Program-made: the position numbers and the translations under genes
The notes under the pieces: generated by a model
Told to the model about the DNA's origin: nothing
The model's database searches: none
The model's input: only the letters and a program-made list of their open reading frames with translations
In this document: positions 4,483-23,117 of the stretch, piece by piece
How the letters are laid out: every line of letters begins with the position of its first letter
Numbering within the stretch: position 1 is the stretch's first letter
From: Candidatus Nanohaloarchaea archaeon
Lineage (GTDB): Archaea > Nanohalarchaeota > Nanosalinia > Nanosalinales > Nanosalinaceae
DNA length: 23,352 bases
Assembly: GCA_041640075.1 (NCBI GenBank)
Contig: JBEQAY010000015.1
Location: forward strand, 1 to 23,352
Direction: 5' to 3'

Positions 4483-5340
4483 CTAGGCGTTAAATCTCTG
4501 CCATATCTTTAAAAGTACCTCGAAGACATCGTCAGAGGTTGATGCCTGAACGAACTCTGCACCGTTCTTGCGGGATACCTCCTCAAGATCATCAAGGTGG
4601 TCATCAAGTCTTCTTCTGTACTTCTTCTTGGTTCTGCGTGATAGAAAAGTCCTGAGTTTGGACGAGGATTCGGGATCCTTAAGGATTTTGTCTCCTGAGA
4701 GATCCGGGTTTATCTCGGACTCATCTAGAACACTTACAACTACGGGCTTAGTATGTTTCAGACTGGTTAAACCTGCTGCAATATCTTCAGAGTCTGATAG
4801 AAAATCTGAGAGGATTATCACGGCAGATTCGTTTTCGATCCTTTTACTGTATTCGGTTATAGAGTCCTCTATACGGCTTTCAGGAGTCTTCTTCAAGCTA
4901 TTCAAAACATTTACAAGCTCTGTAACGTCGCTTCCCCGTCGCCCTGAGGAGAGATTTGTCAAAGTCTCTGAGAAAACTGAGAAATTGTATCTGTCGTTTG
5001 TGTTTAAGCTCATCTTGGCGATTCCTAGTCCAAGTTTTGCTGCGAACTCGTATTTATTTGGGTCTCCATAGTCCATTGAACTGCTTCTGTCCAGAAGGAT
5101 GTGAATGTTCAGACGTCTTTCTTCCTCGAATCTTTTCACGTAGAAGTCTTTTGTACGGGCGTAGGCCTTCCAGTCAATCTTTCTGATGTCGTCGCCGGGA
5201 ATGTACTCTTTGTGGTCTTTGAAGATCATCCCCTGCCCGCTTCTCTGGCTTTTCTGTTCTCCCTGGTTCACCTGTGACGCGTTCTTTTTCAGGGCAAGCT
5301 GAAACTGTTCTAGCTCTTCCAAAAATTCTAGTTCTATCAT
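4483..5340 (-). CDS. DUF58 / vWA-domain protein (MoxR partner)
   Basis: FKDHKEYIPGDDIRKIDWKAYART and VKRFEEE motifs; MIDAS DRSSSM; ILSDFL. ATGA overlap with moxR. Confidence 0.93.
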   Translation of the reverse strand: MIELEFLEELEQFQLALKKNASQVNQGEQKSQRSGQGMIFKDHKEYIPGDDIRKIDWKAYARTKDFYVKRFEEERRLNIHILLDRSSSMDYGDPNKYEFAAKLGLGIAKMSLNTNDRYNFSVFSETLTNLSSGRRGSDVTELVNVLNSLKKTPESRIEDSITEYSKRIENESAVIILSDFLSDSEDIAAGLTSLKHTKPVVVSVLDESEINPDLSGDKILKDPESSSKLRTFLSRRTKKKYRRRLDDHLDDLEEVSRKNGAEFVQASTSDDVFEVLLKIWQRFNA

Positions 5341-6302
5341 AGTGAGTGGATAATTTCCTCTACTATGTCATCTGCGGTCTTTCCCTCTTTTTCAGCCTGG
5401 AAGCTGAGTCCGATCCTGTGTCTTAGTATCGGTTTCGCCATCTCATCTACGTCAGAGGTTGAGACATGGTTTCTTCCTTCCAGAAGAGCTTTGGCTTTTG
5501 CTGCAAGGACTAGCTGCATGGAAGCTCTTGGAGATGCGCCGTAATCCAGGTCGTCGTTTTTCCGGGTGTTTTTGACAGCCATGATCGCTCTATCTCTTAT
5601 GTCGTCGGCGATAGGCACTTCTCTTGTGAATTCCTGCATCCTGATAAGTGATGAGCTTGAAAGCACGTTTTCGAGTTCAGGATCGAAGTCCAGTTCGCTT
5701 GTGAAGCGGTCAACGATTTCCCTTTCCTCGTTTGTGTCCGGGTAGTCCAGTTCAACTTTCATCATGAAGCGGTCTCTCTGAGCTTCTGGCAGTGGATAAG
5801 TTCCCTCCTGTTCAATCGGGTTCTGTGTTGCCATCAGGAAGAAAGGCTCCTCGAGGTCATAACTCTGGTTTCCTACTGTTACCTGTTTCTCCTCCATAGC
5901 TTCCAGTAGCGAAGACTGGGTTTTCGGTGTAGCACGGTTTATCTCGTCCACTAGTATCATGTTGGCAAATATAGGTCCTTTCTGGAACACGAAGTCCGTA
6001 CCGTCATCGTTTTCCTCGATTATATGTGTTCCTGTAATATCTGAAGGCATGAGATCAGGTGTTGACTGTATCCTGGAGAAATCTAAACCTATTACCTGGG
6101 AAATAGTGCGGACCATCATGGTTTTACCCATTCCAGGGTTTGATTCAAGTAGTATATTACCGTCGCAGAGTATGGAAACGATTACCTGGTCTATAACGTC
6201 TTCCTGGCCGACCATCACTTTGCTTACTTCTTCTTTTACCTCTGAGATTTTCTCGGTCAGTTTATCATACTTTGAGGCTCTGTCAACAGTTCCTACTCCC
6301 AT
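5337..6302 (-). CDS. moxR: MoxR-family AAA+ ATPase
   Basis: Walker A ESNPGMGKT, RIQSTPDLMPSDITG, Walker B DEINRATPKTQS, ATQNPIEQEGTYPLPEAQRDRF, GASPRAS. Confidence 0.95.
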   Translation of the reverse strand: MGVGTVDRASKYDKLTEKISEVKEEVSKVMVGQEDVIDQVIVSILCDGNILLESNPGMGKTMMVRTISQVIGLDFSRIQSTPDLMPSDITGTHIIEENDDGTDFVFQKGPIFANMILVDEINRATPKTQSSLLEAMEEKQVTVGNQSYDLEEPFFLMATQNPIEQEGTYPLPEAQRDRFMMKVELDYPDTNEEREIVDRFTSELDFDPELENVLSSSSLIRMQEFTREVPIADDIRDRAIMAVKNTRKNDDLDYGASPRASMQLVLAAKAKALLEGRNHVSTSDVDEMAKPILRHRIGLSFQAEKEGKTADDIVEEIIHSL

Positions 6303-6326
6303 GATTAGAATTAAGGTACTTCTAAA

Positions 6327-6336
6327 CTTAAATTTC
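6327..6336 (-). promoter_or_regulatory. TATA-like promoter of moxR-DUF58-phosphoesterase
   Basis: Minus strand GAAATTTAAG, with the box starting about 30 nt upstream of the ATG at 6302. Confidence 0.45.
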
Positions 6337-6354
6337 TACCATACTCCGCTGTAC

Positions 6355-7113
6355 CTAATCGAAGTCTCTTATGGCCAGGCTGTACTCTTTGGCCAACTGG
6401 AGATCCTCTTCGTTCCTCTGATCCAGTGAGTCAAAAGTTATGTTACGACCGGAACCATCGAAAGAAAATTCGGGCTTTTGAGACTCTCCACGTCCCGAGA
6501 TATCAAAGTTCAGGTCTCTTGTCTCAATCTCTAAATCTGCAGACTCCCCAAGCACCTGAGAGCTATTTAGCCGGCCGGAGCTGTTATTCTCGTCACCTGC
6601 ACTTTCCCTACCCCCCAGGTTCTCCATCTCTGGGATAATGTTGCTGTTCTGGTTTATCAACTGAAAATCTACCAGTCCCGAACCCACAGTCAGGAAACAT
6701 AGTATACCGATTAGTATGATTTTCTGGATAATTTTCCGACTGGGAATGATGCTTTCCGATGTTACTGAACGTGCTCTCTCCATTAAGTCGTCGAAAAGAG
6801 CCTGTGAAACTGTGTTGCTTTTTCCTAGGTTGTCTCTTGCGGTTCTGAGTATTTCTCGAAGTTCAGGGTTCTTTTCCTCATATATCTCCAGGTGATAGGT
6901 TTTTATTCTGTAGATCAAGTCTCCTATGAAAAACAGGAACGTAAGGGCTCCCAGTGTGAAGTAATTTTGTACAGAACTTACAATCTGTATTGATAACAGG
7001 AAGAAAAACAGGTTGGAAACAAGGAAGAACAGTATTGAGTCGAGACTGGCCTGGATGAGGTTGACTTTGATGAATTCTATTTTGAATCTTTTTAGCAGCT
7101 TTTCTACTTTCAT
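6355..7113 (-). CDS. Membrane protein with three TM segments and an acidic, probably glycosylated extracellular region (MoxR/vWA-cluster associated)
   Basis: Two N-terminal TMs, the segment YEEKNPELREILRTARDN, a third TM, sequons, and a C-terminal LAKEYSLAI helix. It resembles halophile MoxR-cluster hypothetical proteins (recalled, not verified). Confidence 0.7.
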   Translation of the reverse strand: MKVEKLLKRFKIEFIKVNLIQASLDSILFFLVSNLFFFLLSIQIVSSVQNYFTLGALTFLFFIGDLIYRIKTYHLEIYEEKNPELREILRTARDNLGKSNTVSQALFDDLMERARSVTSESIIPSRKIIQKIILIGILCFLTVGSGLVDFQLINQNSNIIPEMENLGGRESAGDENNSSGRLNSSQVLGESADLEIETRDLNFDISGRGESQKPEFSFDGSGRNITFDSLDQRNEEDLQLAKEYSLAIRDFD

Positions 7114-7116
7114 AAC

Positions 7117-7587
7117 TCAGTAACCGTGGATCTCACATCTTTCTTCGGTGGTACTGCTGGTTTCGTTTGAACTGCATATGATCTCCATGCTGAACTGGAG
7201 GTCCTGGACTGTCTGATTCAGTTCATCGACAGTTGAATTCAGTTCTGAAAGCCGGTTTTCTACGTCCTGGTTGCGGTTTTCTGACCTTGTGAGCTCTCTC
7301 TCGAGCGTGGATATTCTTTCATTTTTTGAGGCTATTTCGCTATTTCTCTCCCTCAAATCCTCTTCAAGCTCTTTCACAGTATTATTGAGCTCCTGGTTAA
7401 CCGTCCGAATATTTTCCAGAGTTCCGGTCTTGTTCTCGAGCTCGGTTGAGAGGTTGTTTCTCTGGTTTACAAGGTTGCTGAGCTCTGACTGGTAGAAAGT
7501 TGATGAACCTGCAAGTATTGCCAGAACCAGTACTGTCGTGATGAGCAGGAAAGGATTAAGTTTTCTCTTCAGAAGCTGTTCCTTCAT
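7117..7587 (-). CDS. Membrane-anchored coiled-coil protein
   Basis: N-terminal TM/signal (FLLITTVLVLAILAG), about 105 aa of heptad repeats with sequons, and a C-terminal Cys pair. Stop lies 3 nt from the next start. Confidence 0.8.
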   Translation of the reverse strand: MKEQLLKRKLNPFLLITTVLVLAILAGSSTFYQSELSNLVNQRNNLSTELENKTGTLENIRTVNQELNNTVKELEEDLRERNSEIASKNERISTLERELTRSENRNQDVENRLSELNSTVDELNQTVQDLQFSMEIICSSNETSSTTEERCEIHGY

Positions 7588-7608: not shown

Positions 7609-7656
7609 CTTTAACTCCTGTTTTTTTACCTTAACCTTTCAGCGAAATTTAAGTAT
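7609..7656. promoter_or_regulatory. Divergent promoter pair between the MoxR block and the plus-strand trio
   Basis: Minus-strand TTAAAG (7609-7614) lies ~27 nt before ATG 7587. Plus-strand GAAA-TTTAAGTAT (box at 7648-7653) lies ~30 nt before GTG 7678. Confidence 0.55.
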
Positions 7657-7677: not shown

Positions 7678-9303
7678 GTGAGTTCTGACGGAGAAAGAGA
7701 TGGCCCGGCATTCGGCCACGTATTCAACACAGGAGGAAGATCGGACTGGGAGGAAGAAGTACAGAAAGGTGAGATAAAAGATCTTGAAGACGTCAGAGAT
7801 AAGGAAAAAGGCCCAGGATCTCTCAAAGGTCTGATGGGTGGAGGAGATTCCTGGAAAACCCTGAAAGTCAAGTCGGGAACGCAGGGAGGAGCACCTTACG
7901 GTCTTGCGATAAATGCACCAGACAAGTTCGATGACGATCTGGATTACACTGTTGAAAAAGTCGAGGAGAGCGTTTATGTCTCGCCTCAGAGCCAGGTACA
8001 CAACCAGTTGATGCAGCAGAAGCAGAACGCTGAGCAAAGGGTTAAGGAGACCAAGAGAAATCTTTCAGAACTACTCAAGCAGAAGCACATGCTTGAACAC
8101 GATATAAGGAAGCTCAGGTCTCGTATAGAGGATATAAGAGAGGATAACGAGACCCGTATCAAGGCGGATTTTGTGGAGCTTGTGGATGGTGCTGGAGCCG
8201 CAGGAGGACAGGGTGGAGACAGAGCAGCACTGAAGTTTCTAAGAGATAATAATATCTATCCCTCGATAGTAGCTGATTTTAACGAGATGGATTCTCTTGA
8301 AGACCTGAAATCAGAGGAAGAAGGTGGGACGGGAAAGCTTGAACATCTGCCAGCTAACGTTAAAGCGGTTCTGAAGAAGAAGTACGCGATGTACGAGAAA
8401 TGGAAGGATCTGTACGGCAGTGAAGTTAAAAGAAAGCTAGATGAGCTGAAAGGTGAGTTGCAGGGGATTGAACGGGCTATAGAAGAAACTGAGGAGTACC
8501 TTGAGCCATACGTCCGGGATATGGAGATGATCAACAACAAGTCACAGTCAGAGCTTGCGGAGGATATGAGAAGACATATACAGCTGAGAGGTTACAGCTC
8601 TCTATTCACTACCAGGGAGTACATCATCTATCGTCCGCTGAAGAATACTGGAGAGGATGTAATCGTCACGGAGGACGAGGATGAGGCAACTCACTACAGA
8701 GTTGTCTACATTTTCATGGCGCATGCGAACCTTGCTGGAGGGGAGGAGCCATCTTCCCCACAGGGAGGTCCTGATGTCGTCAAAGTGTTCTGGTATCCGG
8801 CTATCGTCGACAAATTTGTCTTCGAAAGAATTTTCCGGGCAAGGATAGATGAGATGGAAGAAGATCTTACCCGCAAAATACAGGAATACACCGGTAAAAT
8901 AGATACTAAGAAAGGGAAGAAACTTTCAGATTCGAGAAGTGAGAAAGGAATGTCGGTGGCAGATTTGAGGGAGAAAATGGGTGAGAAACTGGATAGAAAC
9001 ATGGATCTGGAGGTTTCAGCCAAGATAAGAAGAGTTGAAGATGGACTAGATGATATAGATGATATTTTCTCCAGAAAGGAGATAGAGGCGATTGATGAAA
9101 TACTTGGAACAGCGCTCACTCCTGGCAAGGAAAAATCTGAAGAGTTCTATACAGGTATTACGGCTGATATGAAGAAGTTCACGGGTCAGGTCGATGATTA
9201 CTACATTGACTCCAGTGTACCGTACTATGACCTGACCAACGAGATGACGTTCAGGTATTACTACGACCTGAAGATCGGTCTTGGCCTGTTCACGATGAAA
9301 TGA
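7678..9303 (+). CDS. Uncharacterised coiled-coil protein with embedded XRE/MBF1-like HTH
   Basis: 541-aa acidic ORF with a GTG start, two long coiled coils and a beta-rich middle region. GKKLSDSRSEKGMSVADLREKMG...IRRVEDG...EAIDEILG resembles an HTH_3 domain. Confidence 0.8.
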   Translation: MSSDGERDGPAFGHVFNTGGRSDWEEEVQKGEIKDLEDVRDKEKGPGSLKGLMGGGDSWKTLKVKSGTQGGAPYGLAINAPDKFDDDLDYTVEKVEESVYVSPQSQVHNQLMQQKQNAEQRVKETKRNLSELLKQKHMLEHDIRKLRSRIEDIREDNETRIKADFVELVDGAGAAGGQGGDRAALKFLRDNNIYPSIVADFNEMDSLEDLKSEEEGGTGKLEHLPANVKAVLKKKYAMYEKWKDLYGSEVKRKLDELKGELQGIERAIEETEEYLEPYVRDMEMINNKSQSELAEDMRRHIQLRGYSSLFTTREYIIYRPLKNTGEDVIVTEDEDEATHYRVVYIFMAHANLAGGEEPSSPQGGPDVVKVFWYPAIVDKFVFERIFRARIDEMEEDLTRKIQEYTGKIDTKKGKKLSDSRSEKGMSVADLREKMGEKLDRNMDLEVSAKIRRVEDGLDDIDDIFSRKEIEAIDEILGTALTPGKEKSEEFYTGITADMKKFTGQVDDYYIDSSVPYYDLTNEMTFRYYYDLKIGLGLFTMK

Positions 9304-9313
9304 GGTGTGTTGA

Positions 9314-11884
9314 ATGTCCTTCTTGATCGACTACCTCGAAAAATTCACATCAGATGATGGTGAGGAAAACGGGAAAGGTTTCCCCGACATGAACTACGTT
9401 GTCGGAAATACCTCTGGTATGGACGTAGGTAATATCCCTACTGCGATCGGTCAGAGAATAGGGGATCAGGCACAGATAGGTGGAAGTGTTATGGAGGTTC
9501 AGATCTATAATCCAGGAACATTTTCCGTTGAGAGAGATGAAATAATAGATGGTATAAACCAGCTGGGGATCGACATATCCCTTCACAGTGACCCAAACTC
9601 AGGTTTTGCGTCTGCTTACAAGACCCGTGGTCAGCAGGCAACAGGGTACGAAGCTGTCCACAGTTACTTCACCAATTATCTCAATGAACTTGCGATTTTC
9701 AAGAAAGAGGTAGAGAACAGAAAGGGGGTTGATTTTGATATCACAAGAGTGAACCCTCATGCCTCTACCTCTCCACTCCCCGCTTTACAGGAACGGATGG
9801 CATCTGACGTTGGACTGGACCCCTTCGGTTATGAGATAAGTGAACTGGATAAAGATGACTGGGAGAGAAGGAGTGACGCAAAAAGAAATATTTTTGACAA
9901 TGAAGACTTCCTCAGAAGGTTTTACTATACCTTTGTCAAGAAACGGACGGTTGACCAGCTCTGGAGGCTTTTCCTCGGCCGTCAGGGAGTATTCACGAAC
10001 TACTCAGCCAAGTTCGACAGGATATTCAGGGATGCACAGAGAAAGGCCTGCGACAGATTCTACGATAGAGGTGTTGAAGAGTCAGAGGACGATGATGAAA
10101 GGCTGGAGACAAAGATTGCATTGGTATCCAGTGCCGGCAGAGCTGACGTAGGAGTACAGAGCGCATGGCTCAATCAGATTGAGGAAGAGCTCCCAGAAAC
10201 CTTTGAAGATGTTTATAGACCTAGTAGCGCGATGTCTCCAGAACCTGCAGAGCCTGAGGATATAGAGACGTTAAGTGATGTAAATGATATTCTCCCTCCG
10301 AATGTAAGAGTAACCAGGATCGCCAGTCTTGCAGAGGCTGTTTACAGGATTGAAAACGGCCAGTGGAGTGATAGAGGCATCGAGAAAATTTTACTGGAGG
10401 GCGATGAGTTGGAGGAATTCCAGAACGTTCTCTTGAAAGCTATTGAGGATCGCCTTGACAGGACCTGGGAGGGTCCGAACGGTGACAAGTTTTTGATCTC
10501 TGTCCAGGGTAAAATTCAGGCTCTTTCAAATCACCTGGATATTGAAGGTCAGAGGGTTTACGATCTGGCTCTTCAGCAGAAAGGCGAGGACTTTGAGTCT
10601 GATGGCGACAAGGAGTGGGAGATCGATGAGGCTGCTGAGGAAGTTATGGCCGGTAATGATGATTTCTTTGAATCTGGTGAGGAAGAGGAGCGCAACAGGT
10701 ACAGGGATATGCTGAAGACGTTGCTCGGTAACTTTGAGCAGATGCTCTGGATGGAGTCCAATCTTTTCTACTTTATTATGCCTGCGTGGATGCAGACCTC
10801 GAGCTACTCCTCTGAAAGGCATAAAGGCTGGGACGCACCTGAGTTCATCTGGCAGACCTTGATAGAGGATAAATGGGGTGACGAGTTCGATATAGATCTG
10901 AAGGAGCCGGAGAAGGCCGGAGGGTATTTTGACGCTCTCCAGAACGAGGAGTTCAGAATGGATGTAGCTGGTGCAGTCGGCGCATGCTATATATGGGGTC
11001 ATTACACTCAGAAACATTCTCAGTTTGAAATTTCTGGTGAAGAGAATGTTGAAGATGATAAGGAGTTCTGTACGTGGATGGAATGGATGAATAAATATGG
11101 TATCGGTGTCAATCTTGAGGCGATGCATGGCAGTCCACAGCAACCGCTGAAGGTCTGGCGTCCAAAGGATATTGTGGCATCCACACGGGCTATAAACATG
11201 ACTGCAAGGCGTGAACTGGACGAAATAAACCCGGAGCTGGATGAATGTATTGCAAAGTTCACGATTGATATGGAGCACGTTGCATCTTTCGGCGTGAATC
11301 CGTGGAAACAGATGCAGGAGCTGATCGAGCAGGAGAAAAACCTGTCAGACAGCTCATACGATGTCGTTGTTGATGAAGACAAACCTCTTGCAAAAATAAT
11401 GAGAAACTACCACCTGATGAAGCCGGGGCTCGAGTCACAGCAGGGAACTCGGCACGGACCCTTCGACAGAGGGGATAAAACACTTTACACCTGGCTTTAC
11501 CGACTGGTGGAAGCAGGCTTTGCACGTAACCCTGGCGAACTGGCTACCATAATGTATGAGCAAGGGGATGAAAAAGCTGAGACTACTTACATGGCCAGAA
11601 TTGCCATGGATCTGATCGAACTCGGTGTTGAACCCGATGAAGTAGATCCTGTGAACGTTTCAACTGAAGGCGACTATGATTCAAAGGAAGAGGCTTTGAT
11701 CGCCAAGTTCTTCGGAATAGATGAGTCAAGTACGGCTGCAGAGTGGGCGAAGATCGAGCAGCATGCCTTTGATCCTCTGGAAGGTTTGCTTGAGGCTGAA
11801 GAATTTGATTTCACCTATTCTGGCCGTGCAGCGACAGATTCTGGAACGAGGCCTGCACAATGGCAGAATGAAGAGTATCGCTGA
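9314..11884 (+). CDS. Giant xylose-isomerase-like / AP-endonuclease-2 family TIM-barrel metalloprotein with a large insertion
   Basis: Ordered motifs SLH91, VNPH149, NLE602, TID652xxH655, YH700L, RH714GP..G, YE749. SD GAGGTG overlaps the upstream stop codon. Confidence 0.75.
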   Translation: MSFLIDYLEKFTSDDGEENGKGFPDMNYVVGNTSGMDVGNIPTAIGQRIGDQAQIGGSVMEVQIYNPGTFSVERDEIIDGINQLGIDISLHSDPNSGFASAYKTRGQQATGYEAVHSYFTNYLNELAIFKKEVENRKGVDFDITRVNPHASTSPLPALQERMASDVGLDPFGYEISELDKDDWERRSDAKRNIFDNEDFLRRFYYTFVKKRTVDQLWRLFLGRQGVFTNYSAKFDRIFRDAQRKACDRFYDRGVEESEDDDERLETKIALVSSAGRADVGVQSAWLNQIEEELPETFEDVYRPSSAMSPEPAEPEDIETLSDVNDILPPNVRVTRIASLAEAVYRIENGQWSDRGIEKILLEGDELEEFQNVLLKAIEDRLDRTWEGPNGDKFLISVQGKIQALSNHLDIEGQRVYDLALQQKGEDFESDGDKEWEIDEAAEEVMAGNDDFFESGEEEERNRYRDMLKTLLGNFEQMLWMESNLFYFIMPAWMQTSSYSSERHKGWDAPEFIWQTLIEDKWGDEFDIDLKEPEKAGGYFDALQNEEFRMDVAGAVGACYIWGHYTQKHSQFEISGEENVEDDKEFCTWMEWMNKYGIGVNLEAMHGSPQQPLKVWRPKDIVASTRAINMTARRELDEINPELDECIAKFTIDMEHVASFGVNPWKQMQELIEQEKNLSDSSYDVVVDEDKPLAKIMRNYHLMKPGLESQQGTRHGPFDRGDKTLYTWLYRLVEAGFARNPGELATIMYEQGDEKAETTYMARIAMDLIELGVEPDEVDPVNVSTEGDYDSKEEALIAKFFGIDESSTAAEWAKIEQHAFDPLEGLLEAEEFDFTYSGRAATDSGTRPAQWQNEEYR

Positions 11885-11935
11885 GGAAAAATAGAACCAA
11901 TATTTTTTACTAACTGGTAACAAATATTGACAAGG

Positions 11936-11946
11936 TTTTTAAGTAT
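11936..11946 (+). promoter_or_regulatory. TATA box upstream of the nucleotidyltransferase gene
   Basis: TTTTTAAGTAT shares the TTTAAGTAT core with the 7648 promoter and is preceded by the dyad at 11898-11929. Confidence 0.5.
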
Positions 11947-11973
11947 CCGGTTTCTAGTGTTCAATGTGGTAGC

Positions 11974-13233
11974 ATGAGTTCCAAAGATAAAATGAAGGAG
12001 ATGCGTGAGAAGTCCCAGGAGAGACGTATGGAATCTGCTGAGGAGTTCTCCGAGAAGCTGAGGGAAAAACTAGGCGATAAGGTAAAGGTAGTCGCTGTAT
12101 GGGGAAGCGTTCCACAGGCAGAGCACAGCGTGGACAGTGATATCGACACTCTTGTTATCCTGGATGACACTAAACTGAAAGGAGATGTTCCTGAGGACGC
12201 GAAAAAGAAGATAAGGAAGAAAGTTACATCACTTGCAAATGATACTGACGAAAGAATCACTATCCAGTACTTCCCGTTCCTAACAGAGTTCTGGAACTCA
12301 CTAAGAAAAGGAGAACCACTGGCGATCGAGGCAGTGAGAAACGGAGAACCTGTATATGACGCAGGTATCTTCATGCCGGCAAAGAGACTGCTTGAAAGAG
12401 GGAAGATCTCCGGTACGCAGGAATCAGTGAAGAAGAGACTGAAGACAGCAGCAGCAGGATACAAGAAAGCAGAGAAAAACATGAAATCCTCGATCCCTCA
12501 CAAGCTTGAACAGGTCATGGCTAACGCAGGCCAGGCACCAATCATGCTCGTAGGGAAGGCTCCGCCAGGCAAAGAGAAAGTCCCTGGCGTACTTGAGGAT
12601 ATGTTCGTCGAAAAGGACATTCTAGAGGAAGAGTTCATCGAAATCGGTGAAGACCTGGTCGAGTTCGGAGACAAAGGAGAGAAGAATCCTGAAGAAGTCA
12701 CGGGAGAGATGGTCGATGAACACCTGGAGAAAGCAGACAAGTTCGTCAAACGGATGCACAAGCTTGTATCACAGCTAGGCTCCAGGAAAAAAGTAAAGGA
12801 CATAGTAGAGGACTACAAGAAGTTCCTCAAAGCTAACGTCGCTGCACTAAAGTCCAAAGGAGTCACGCCACCAGAAGATAAGGAAGATTTACCAGGTGCC
12901 GTAGAAGAGAACCTTGAAGTCGGCGAAGACCATATAGAAATGTTTGACAGATGGGAGGACGTTGTCTCAAAGGTCAAGGAGAAATCAATGGACGAGGTAG
13001 ACGAGAAAGAGCTCTACGACCTCAAAGAAGAGACAAGGGAATTTGTCTCCAGTGTCGGCAAGGACCTTCAGAAGGCGAAGCAGGAAGAAGCCCAGAAGAT
13101 GACGCCGAGCGTCGATCCTTCAGAGGCTGCGAAGAATGCTTCCGACGACGATATCATACCAAATCTTCAGAAGGAAGCTCAGAAACAGGTAAGTCAGGAA
13201 GGAGCAGAAGAGAAAGAGTCTGAGGAAAAATAG
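11974..13233 (+). CDS. Minimal nucleotidyltransferase (Pol-beta superfamily) fused to two HEPN-like helical domains
   Basis: VAVWGSV...DSDIDTLVILDD (GS plus DxD), followed by two similar helical repeats and a low-complexity acidic tail. Confidence 0.85.
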   Translation: MSSKDKMKEMREKSQERRMESAEEFSEKLREKLGDKVKVVAVWGSVPQAEHSVDSDIDTLVILDDTKLKGDVPEDAKKKIRKKVTSLANDTDERITIQYFPFLTEFWNSLRKGEPLAIEAVRNGEPVYDAGIFMPAKRLLERGKISGTQESVKKRLKTAAAGYKKAEKNMKSSIPHKLEQVMANAGQAPIMLVGKAPPGKEKVPGVLEDMFVEKDILEEEFIEIGEDLVEFGDKGEKNPEEVTGEMVDEHLEKADKFVKRMHKLVSQLGSRKKVKDIVEDYKKFLKANVAALKSKGVTPPEDKEDLPGAVEENLEVGEDHIEMFDRWEDVVSKVKEKSMDEVDEKELYDLKEETREFVSSVGKDLQKAKQEEAQKMTPSVDPSEAAKNASDDDIIPNLQKEAQKQVSQEGAEEKESEEK

Positions 13234-22007: not shown

Positions 22008-23117
22008 ATGAAAGAGCGAGGCTGGGAAATCTTTGCAACAGAGGAAGACGAACCGGACAAAGACTCAGACGTATTCTTCAACCCGGCCATGAAGTTGAAT
22101 AGGGATCTCTCGGAGATAGCTGCAAAAGTCTTCAAGAAACAGGCAGACATCGACGAGTTCCGAGTCTGTGACCCTATGGCAGCTTCTGGAATAAGAGGAT
22201 TCAGATACTCCGATATAGCTGACAAACTGCACCTAGCTGATGTCAATCCAGAAGCCATCAAAAGTATAGAGAAAGGGCTTGACAAAAATAATATAGACGC
22301 GGAAGTCCATGAAAAAGATGCTAACGTGCTGCTATCAGAGTACAGAAATTTCTTCCATTTAATAGATATAGATCCATTCGGCCCTTTCACAAAGTTCTTG
22401 GACTCTGCTGCCCGTGCAGCAAACCACTCCAGCTTCGTCGGACTGACGGCAACCGATAATGGAGCAGCTTCTGGAAGCTATCCAACGGTTTGTGAACGAC
22501 GCTACGGATCCAAACCCATCAGAAACAGTTTCATGCATGAAACAGGTCTCAGAATTTACATAAAGGAGGCTTTCCAGAATTTTGCCCGATTTGACAAATG
22601 CTTTGAACCTAAAGCCTGCTTCCAGGAGCGACACTACGCCCGGGTCATGGGTCGTGTAACGGAATCAAAGAGCAGATGCAACCAGAACCTGGAAAACATC
22701 GGCTACCTGACGTACTGTCCTGAATGCCGGTGGAGAAAACTTGAAAGAAAACAGGAATGCAAGTTCTGCGGAAACAAAGAACTGCAGTACGCTGGCCCTC
22801 TATGGACGGGAAACTTGGGAGACCAGAGATTCACTGACGAAATGCTTGAAGAAGTTCCCGAGCAATGGGATGAAGCCAGAGACTACATTGAAACTCTAGA
22901 CAACGAGGTAAATATCAGGACTCCGTTCTACGAGATCCATGAGATGAGCTCCGAACTCGATGTCCAGGCACCGAGAACAGACAATGTCATCAAACATTTG
23001 AGAGACAAAGGCTACATAGTCTCAAGAACCCACTTTGAGCCAACGGGAGTTCGCACCGATGCGCCATTTGAAGATGTGAGAGAGGCGATAAGGGAAGAGA
23101 GTACTTCAAACACATAA
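22008..23117 (+). CDS. trm1: tRNA (guanine(26)-N2,N2)-dimethyltransferase
   Basis: VFFNPAMKLNRDLS; DPMAASGIRGFRY; IDIDPFG; LTATD; ETGLRI; CPEC/CKFC Zn site; AGPLWTG; SRTHF..GVRTDAP. Confidence 0.96.
   Translation: MKERGWEIFATEEDEPDKDSDVFFNPAMKLNRDLSEIAAKVFKKQADIDEFRVCDPMAASGIRGFRYSDIADKLHLADVNPEAIKSIEKGLDKNNIDAEVHEKDANVLLSEYRNFFHLIDIDPFGPFTKFLDSAARAANHSSFVGLTATDNGAASGSYPTVCERRYGSKPIRNSFMHETGLRIYIKEAFQNFARFDKCFEPKACFQERHYARVMGRVTESKSRCNQNLENIGYLTYCPECRWRKLERKQECKFCGNKELQYAGPLWTGNLGDQRFTDEMLEEVPEQWDEARDYIETLDNEVNIRTPFYEIHEMSSELDVQAPRTDNVIKHLRDKGYIVSRTHFEPTGVRTDAPFEDVREAIREESTSNT

Follow-up and report, generated by a model that had tools for sequence, protein, structure and literature searches.

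What do three large, co-oriented genes of no recognised function do in the small genome of a nanohaloarchaeon? The question is raised by a stretch of 23,352 nucleotides (nt), hereafter the window, from Candidatus Nanohaloarchaea archaeon (GenBank assembly GCA_041640075.1, 0.98 Mb; contig JBEQAY010000015.1, positions 1 to 23,352), in which an earlier note had picked out the trio as a candidate undescribed module with a core or host-interaction role. We find that genes 1 to 3 are indeed core genes, kept together across DPANN lineages and not mobile. The module combines enzyme folds already known with one protein that belongs to no described family, and it matches no characterised pathway; it is real, ordinary in its parts and unexplained as a whole. 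The reading we favour, with a probability of roughly 0.35, is that it runs reversible protein NMPylation (NMP, nucleoside monophosphate), with the product of gene 3 (P3) as writer, that of gene 2 (P2) as eraser and that of gene 1 (P1) as partner or target. The open reading frames (ORFs), with lengths in amino acids (aa), are:

7678-9303, + strand: gene 1, ORF of P1; 541 aa, GTG start; an alpha/beta domain plus a long antiparallel coiled coil.
9314-11884, + strand: gene 2, ORF of P2; 856 aa, ATG start; an AP_endonuc_2-type (beta/alpha)8 barrel.
11974-13233, + strand: gene 3, ORF of P3; 419 aa; a Pol-beta/MNT nucleotidyltransferase (NTase), followed by a pair of HEPN-like helical repeats and ending in an acidic tail.

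Among 70 Nanohaloarchaeota genomes, which are related and not independent samples, matches to genes 1, 2 and 3 occur in 69, 65 and 66, respectively (one of the 66 holding a gene 3 paralogue only), and each gene is present in all 28 near-complete genomes of the phylum. Counted by hand from the gene positions listed, the first two genes adjoin in 61 of the 64 genomes that have both, and genes 2 and 3 lie no more than 4 kb apart in 60 of 64; in all seven exceptions the genes fall on different contigs. The order P1-P2-P3 is kept in all five families of the phylum, and the flanks vary.

The same arrangement extends well beyond this phylum. A P1 profile searched against 1.84 billion representatives gave 277 matches at E ≤ 0.001, and a tree of 132 of the 150 matches listed, those longer than 370 aa, plus references resolves a Nanohaloarchaeota clade, a large clade with Aenigmatarchaeota-named members, one small clade and a clade with a Nanoarchaeota-named member. 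Across 80 metagenome loci of Aenigmatarchaeota type (the taxon is inferred from the P1 tree, and many contigs are short and end early), the gene order is the same, with the barrel following in 63 and the NTase in 40. When GTDB genomes were scanned with the Nanoarchaeota-containing P1 clade, 415 of 498 stretches were confirmed; the 80 best of these 415, mostly titled Woese-, Pace- or Nanoarchaeota, hold a split barrel of 600-680 aa in 67 cases and a P3 homologue in 50, in the order P1, (a disordered protein of ~200 aa), barrel, NTase. Within Nanobdellota, P1 is found in 248 of 251 sampled genomes (two unpublished ones included), nearly always as a single copy. The NTase is present in 81 of 81; in 77 of them it occurs as two paralogues, one short and located in the operon, the other of ~600-660 aa. 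At a strict cut-off of 1e-20 the barrel is present in at least 56 of 81, and three of the negatives do carry a barrel beside P1. In 40 Nanobdellota regions hand-picked from the 150 listed P1 matches, the barrel lies near gene 1 in 35 and the NTase in 30.

These lineages are tied together by sequence profiles. That of Woese-type P1 picks out gene 1 of the window as the sole match in its genome (6e-18), and that of the Nanohaloarchaeota NTases matches Woese-type NTases at about 1e-49; because P1 and P3 profiles match across both, the operons of Nanohaloarchaeota and Aenigmatarchaeota and those of Woese- and Pacearchaeota are, judged by these matches, one system. A 55-row tree of P3 places the copies of each lineage in one supported clade, the pattern that vertical inheritance would give. 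The co-occurrence and clustering in other genomes on which the earlier note had staked its module go far beyond chance across DPANN lineages, in a survey that left out the genomes of Micrarchaeota, Iainarchaeota, Undinarchaeota and Altiarchaeota.

Two candidate interpretations of the neighbourhood were set aside. A defence island is rejected on three grounds: the PADLOC matches are all short and at motif level, the distribution is that of core genes, and among 224 pattern matches no viral relative, and no P3 in a viral contig, was confirmed. A gene for signal peptidase II (Peptidase_A8, 108 bits) diverges from gene 1 in one Woese/Pace clade (L086:4073-4474 and 57 further loci); LspA was rejected as a member of the system and taken as clade synteny, being present in 58 of 80 close loci but only 9 of 40 wider ones. 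One genome carries a second partial barrel copy together with a gene 1 match in two frames (G061:C1:132718-133806 and 163146-164704), which may be an assembly error.

P3 is the most readily classified of the three products. It scores above the PF01909 cut-off, bearing out the original NTase call, and carries the motif GSx10DxD (G44, S45, D56, D58), of which the glycine and both aspartates are present in 140 of 140 homologues and the serine in 138. Its C-terminal part comprises two similar helical repeats (P 5.4e-4) with the helix-G-x-x-PP pattern of HEPN domains, and no Pfam match to PF05168, PF01934 or PF08780 is seen at E ≤ 1; of the two HEPN domains first proposed, the internal duplication stands, and their HEPN identity is that of a candidate. 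The R-x4-H RNase motif of HEPN proteins is found in 29 of 37 Aenigmatarchaeota-type homologues, in none of 16 from Nanohaloarchaeota and in none of 77 short ones from Nanobdellota, and no tyrosine stands two residues after its histidine in six Aenigmatarchaeota-type sequences. The ~600-660-aa paralogue has two NTase-like repeats, one of them degenerate (L048:1326-3215; L058:18898-20691); it is present in almost all 81 Nanobdellota genomes and some Nanohaloarchaeota, and was not found in the genome of the window.

P2 is the split barrel that the earlier note described. Its model (pLDDT 85.6, pTM 0.84) has eight barrel strands, 1-4 within residues 28-146 and 5-8 within residues 598-748, and between the two halves lies a further feature:

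9761-11068, + strand: mostly helical insertion in P2, about residues 150-585 (~435 residues), between barrel strands 4 and 5.

The length of this insertion differs widely among relatives; since it emerges after a barrel strand at the face that bears the metal site, it would fit a macromolecular substrate. In a wide structural search, endonuclease IV of E. coli (Nfo, PDB 1QTW) ranks first, with Z 19.2 and a root-mean-square deviation (rmsd) of 3.5 Å over 264 residues. Pairing with Nfo by motif and by E. coli numbering gives the metal ligands H91, H149, E602, D652, H655, H700, H714 and E749, of which seven are invariant in 82 of 82 rows and H655 is His in 76 and Gln in 6. At the ninth ligand position (712) are found Thr (38 rows), His (37) and Ser (7); in Nanobdellota barrels it is Asp in 29 of 31. 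The same eight ligands are kept in Nanobdellota barrels and in those of Aenigmatarchaeota type (an alignment that takes in five basal Nanohaloarchaeota rows).

Does P2, then, repair DNA? According to PMC13113976, Nfo inserts Arg37 and Tyr72 into the DNA minor groove; the matching positions in P2, assigned by motif against the genome's own Nfo, are Ser, Ala, Thr or Gly at 68 and mostly Pro at 94 (82 rows). That genome encodes a separate, true Nfo (TIGR00587, 286 bits against a cut-off of 130), and P2 as the housekeeping apurinic/apyrimidinic endonuclease is accordingly rejected. P2 itself has no Pfam or NCBIfam match, with no NCBIfam family at E ≤ 1 and no score to TIGR00587 or PF01261; its model has no Foldseek match at E ≤ 0.001, and the Nanohaloarchaeota barrel profile searched against solved structures gave noise only. 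Nanobdellota barrels, by contrast, score above the PF01261 cut-off. Nanohaloarchaeota and Aenigmatarchaeota barrels are clear homologues (E 8e-43), and the Nanobdellota link is weaker (P 6e-6 from the Aenigmatarchaeota core, 0.02 from the Nanohaloarchaeota core). A phosphodiesterase of the barrel superfamily that does not act on DNA is represented by the CbiR model, a weak match (E 5e-6) to a Pacearchaeota barrel.

P1, a coiled-coil protein, could be placed in no known family. The model (pLDDT 91.6, pTM 0.79) shows an alpha/beta domain opened by an antiparallel coiled coil (residues 106-154 and 226-284) with a conserved helical head, and the few near-invariant residues in 147 rows fall in coil and head. 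No Pfam or NCBIfam match lies above cut-off, the ESM Atlas returned no usable match, and Foldseek found none at E ≤ 0.001 for the whole model, the alpha/beta domain not having been searched alone. One further element is confined to the family of the window:

8902-9123, + strand: XRE-type helix-turn-helix (HTH) in P1, residues 409-482.

Alone among the parts of P1 it has a convincing structural match, superposing on the N-terminal domain of CapH with Z 8.8 and an rmsd of 1.9 Å over 62 residues. The region is a gap in the basal-family rows of the P1 alignment and is absent outside the window's family, and by this alignment the HTH is a late addition in one family and not part of the conserved system. 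The earlier description of a coiled-coil/HTH protein therefore holds for the P1 model in both its parts and for the conserved system in its coiled coil.

Two kinds of small gene diverge from gene 1 in several lineages. The first, recognised by eye, encodes a basic/hydrophobic, amphipathic N-terminal helix, a disordered linker and a C-terminal coiled coil of ~25 residues; it occurs in basal Nanohaloarchaeota (three in tandem), in 43 of 80 Aenigmatarchaeota-type loci and in Woese/Pace loci (L031:4552-5862, L036:5273-6869, L040:8288-9697, L139:8546-8800, L105:7782-8111, L212:13523-13819), and its products match no family. The second comprises two or three tandem paralogues of ~165 aa with long beta-strands, beside gene 1 in 59 of 80 Aenigmatarchaeota-type and 5 of 40 Nanobdellota loci (for example L135:5-806, L229:4109-5785 and L231:13480-15039); in the genome of the window they adjoin a Toprim gene (G000:C25:8398-10201). 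Their ESM Atlas matches are archaeal clusters only, with no family. The order of strands and helices in this ~165-aa family resembles the P1 core, a similarity that is not significant (P 0.04 and 0.25).

What single activity might such a trio serve? A nucleotide-adding fold and a phosphodiester-cleaving fold are kept together, and we infer that one bond is made and broken. Using NTP, P3 would attach NMP to a side-chain hydroxyl; the resulting NMP-protein phosphodiester would be hydrolysed by P2, and P1 would serve either as bound partner or as target of the tag, the three perhaps forming a physical complex. A protein acceptor is favoured since the closest characterised NTases with GSx10DxD and the same fusion modify protein tyrosine, as MntA does (PMC7641770 and PMC13000451), since P2 lacks the DNA contacts of Nfo and has gained a large lid, and since the HTH, R-x4-H and the linkage to Trm1 are each confined to one lineage. 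On this account a fused MNT-HEPN protein of toxin-antitoxin type would have been domesticated, losing its RNase and gaining a dedicated eraser.

Several observations weigh against reversible NMPylation. The third metal-binding acid of the NTase, placed from the strand pattern, is replaced by Q98 in P3, by Gln in all Nanohaloarchaeota, Aenigmatarchaeota-type and long homologues and mostly by Asn or Thr in the short Nanobdellota ones; P3 may thus be a slow enzyme, work by a different chemistry or have no activity. As fold matches of P2, Art22 (an isomerase), MJ1311 and IolI come within 1 Z of Nfo, and hydrolysis is for that reason not fixed by the fold. In a tree of 44 barrel cores the Nanobdellota barrels join four stand-alone barrels (98/94, long branches) and not those of Nanohaloarchaeota and Aenigmatarchaeota, so that the barrels of the three phyla are not proven orthologues; the discrepancy reflects either fast evolution of the Nanohaloarchaeota and Aenigmatarchaeota barrels or one barrel replacement, and we favour the first, as yet unproven, because split point and operon position are shared. 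Linkage is not universal: two Aenigmatarchaeota-type loci (L169 and L170) and 5 of the 40 Nanobdellota regions have no barrel near gene 1, and gene 3 is served by a separate promoter, with other genes often standing between it and gene 2. No acceptor tyrosine was identified, and the idea that the disordered ~200-aa protein of Woesearchaeota is a Tyr-rich substrate was rejected, its Tyr content being 3.2% vs 4.0%. Finally, Trm1 lies directly 3' of gene 3 in two basal families (L033-L041), which could point to tRNA.

That last observation leads to the alternative that survives best, nucleic-acid end processing, which we consider possible though unlikely. Here P2 would heal blocked 3' ends or cleave damaged RNA or DNA, P3 would extend the healed end and P1 would hold the substrate. 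Nfo as the top fold match, Trm1 3' of gene 3 in 9 basal-family loci shown, the survival of R-x4-H in most Aenigmatarchaeota-type NTases and the HTH of the window's P1 family are all consistent with such a role. Against it, the DNA-inserting residues of Nfo are not kept, the linkage to Trm1 is not seen in 79 of 80 Aenigmatarchaeota-type loci, and the HTH, like R-x4-H, occurs in a single lineage. Nucleic-acid polymerases of the P3 fold use the third acid that P3 lacks, a true Nfo is encoded separately, and a CCA enzyme is listed separately in a relative.

Less probable still is a small-molecule cycle, in which the product of P3 would be a nucleotide messenger, or else a metabolite or lipid precursor activated with NMP, for P2 to degrade or isomerise. 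The solved sequences closest to P3 are kanamycin nucleotidyltransferases (E 0.006), a weak PADLOC cyclase match is found (E 2.7e-5), and MJ1311, deposited as tagatose-3-epimerase-like, is the nearest solved relative of the Nanobdellota barrel (E 6e-12); these matches, though, span a short motif region only. A lid of 250-440 residues and an obligate neighbour of 540 residues would exceed what small-molecule enzymes of this fold carry, and no effector or sensor gene is conserved near the module.

We give a little less credence again to a structural or regulatory machine, in which P1 and the ~165-aa paralogues would form an assembly peculiar to DPANN archaea, serving for instance host attachment or division, and P2 and P3 would be degenerate, binding nucleotide or metal as regulators. 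P1 is near-universal and single-copy (in the 248 genomes given above) with a long coiled coil, both kinds of small gene sit divergently beside it in several lineages, and, according to PMC11420986, the proteins of the attachment organelle are not yet established. Yet neither the metal ligands of P2 nor the DxD of P3 vary, which is the pattern of functional enzymes, P1 to P3 show no membrane anchor by eye and are not especially abundant in one proteome (PAI 0.74-1.0, detailed below), and the likeness between the P1 core and the ~165-aa family falls short of significance. Very unlikely, lastly, is that P2 is a multinuclear iron enzyme of MbnB/DUF692 type carrying out oxidative protein modification, with P1 as substrate-binding partner and P3 separate: no two genes of the module are linked as tightly as 1 and 2, Woesearchaeota encode a disordered protein between these two, and MbnB is in the P2 fold list (Z 14.6), but it ranks 43rd, 4.6 Z under Nfo, none of 23 P2 members has a DUF692 Pfam match, and many carriers of the module come from anoxic settings.

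Around the three genes lie these signals:

9302-9307, + strand: Shine-Dalgarno-like GAGGTG, overlapping the gene 1 stop.
7648-7656, + strand: TATA-like box of gene 1, TTTAAGTAT, 21 nt 5' of the GTG.
11938-11946, + strand: TATA-like box of gene 3, TTTAAGTAT.
11907-11921, no strand assigned: imperfect palindrome TTAC-N6-GTAAC, immediately 5' of the promoter of gene 3.

Genes 1 and 2 are separated by 10 nt (TGA at 9301-9303, ATG at 9314), as first described, and the overlapping GAGGTG may couple translation of gene 2 to that of gene 1. The gene 1 transcript would probably be almost leaderless, because its box lies so close to the GTG. The core sequence TTTAAGTAT, which we take to be an archaeal TATA box, does precede both genes; it occurs in the window at 7648 and 11938 only (0.17 expected, two copies reached in 1 of 100 shuffles) and four times in the whole genome, and TTTTAAGTA precedes gene 1 in 5 of 5 loci shown for the same family. 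The shared box is weak evidence for co-regulation, because gene 3 has an upstream palindrome of its own and other genes often intervene between genes 2 and 3; that palindrome is present in 19 of 23 same-family upstream regions, and the gene 1 promoter in the window is without it. As a sequence pattern it is likely an operator, the putative site of a global regulator. Scored across the window's genome, the palindrome TTAC-N6-GTAAC(AAAT) has 43 sites, many intergenic and often 10-25 nt from a start codon; by eye, the other sites precede mixed, unrelated genes with no functional theme.

All three orthologues are expressed in one cultured relative. In the PMC7443923 supplement (S2a/S3b), LC1Nh_0808, LC1Nh_0809 and LC1Nh_0811 of Ca. 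Nanohalobium constans are represented by 17, 29 and 16 peptides with PAI values of 0.74, 0.76 and 1.0; because neighbouring genes show similar values (MoxR 0.77), these speak to expression and not to stoichiometry.

Named homologues put the window in Nanohaloarchaeota. The module sits among MoxR, DUF58, metallophosphoesterase, an MFS transporter, an A-type ATP synthase operon and Trm1, and no integrase or transposase family scores above cut-off among 25 scanned ORFs of the window, in keeping with the housekeeping surroundings first noted. The divergent DUF58-MoxR-DUF7502-coiled-coil operon at 4483-7587 adjoins gene 1 in several same-family genomes too. Trm1 itself lies at 22008-23117, with the ATP synthase operon between it and gene 3. 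At 1573-1914 is a 113-aa protein, 82-85% identical to its relatives, histone-fold-like by eye and with no Pfam match above cut-off.

No published description of the module was found in the literature searched, subscription papers being outside its scope. A term look-up in the main texts of PMC8204110 and PMC9258230 found no mention of nucleotidyltransferase, endonuclease or barrel. Of the PMC8204110 supplement, two of the five NTP_transf_2 rows and both AP_endonuc_2 rows were covered, all of them generic, and its unnamed families may include P1. Genomes of 0.5-1 Mb keep few genes, yet almost all sampled members retain this module of 4-6 kb, for which reason it is probably essential and defines phylum-specific biology. 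If reversible NMPylation is the right reading, these cells harbour an undescribed core process and a housekeeping use of the MNT-HEPN pair. A bolder version, which we hold improbable as a whole, would trace the module to the ancestor of one half of the DPANN radiation, as an essential innovation with three parts: a writer domesticated from an MNT-HEPN protein, the first protein-tag eraser of the endonuclease IV fold, and a coiled-coil protein of new fold that, when tagged, would switch a machine peculiar to DPANN archaea (possibly for host attachment or life stage) and built with the adjoining small paralogues. The function is directly testable, since P1 to P3 look soluble, can be studied through non-halophilic homologues of 280-640 aa and are all made by a species in culture, and P1 is a candidate single-copy marker gene for these lineages.

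How, then, does the module compare with known systems? P2 shares with endonuclease IV the barrel fold and, as paired by motif, eight of nine metal ligands in register, and differs in its insertion of ~435 residues after strand 4, its conserved C-terminal extension, the loss of the DNA-inserting Arg/Tyr and a ninth ligand of T, H or S. MJ1311 of Methanocaldococcus jannaschii (PDB 3WQO), a tied fold match (Z 18.5) and the best solved sequence match of the Nanobdellota barrels, is about 290 aa long, lacks the insertion and has its function listed as uncharacterised. GlnE and GlnD carry out housekeeping reversible protein nucleotidylylation with an NTase plus a helical bundle. The writer-eraser logic proposed here is of that kind, and the two-repeat paralogue of P3 recalls them as well; unlike theirs, the eraser would be a separate TIM barrel, neither P3 nor two long paralogues match the GlnE/GlnD families, and no glutamine synthetase or PII gene is among the conserved neighbours. 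The nearest parallel for P3 is MntA/HepT and the fused MNT-HEPN protein FhepTA, with which it shares a GSx10DxD NTase joined to a HEPN-like helical bundle and, in Aenigmatarchaeota-type homologues, the R-x4-H. It departs from them in being core and vertically inherited instead of mobile, in its second repeat and in the replaced third acid (D71 in MntA, according to PMC7641770). Unlike MntA/HepT, P3 is linked to a candidate eraser; PMC7641770 names the de-NMPylating eraser for HepT as unidentified, and P2, should it act as proposed, would be a de-NMPylating enzyme of a new fold class filling the gap so named.

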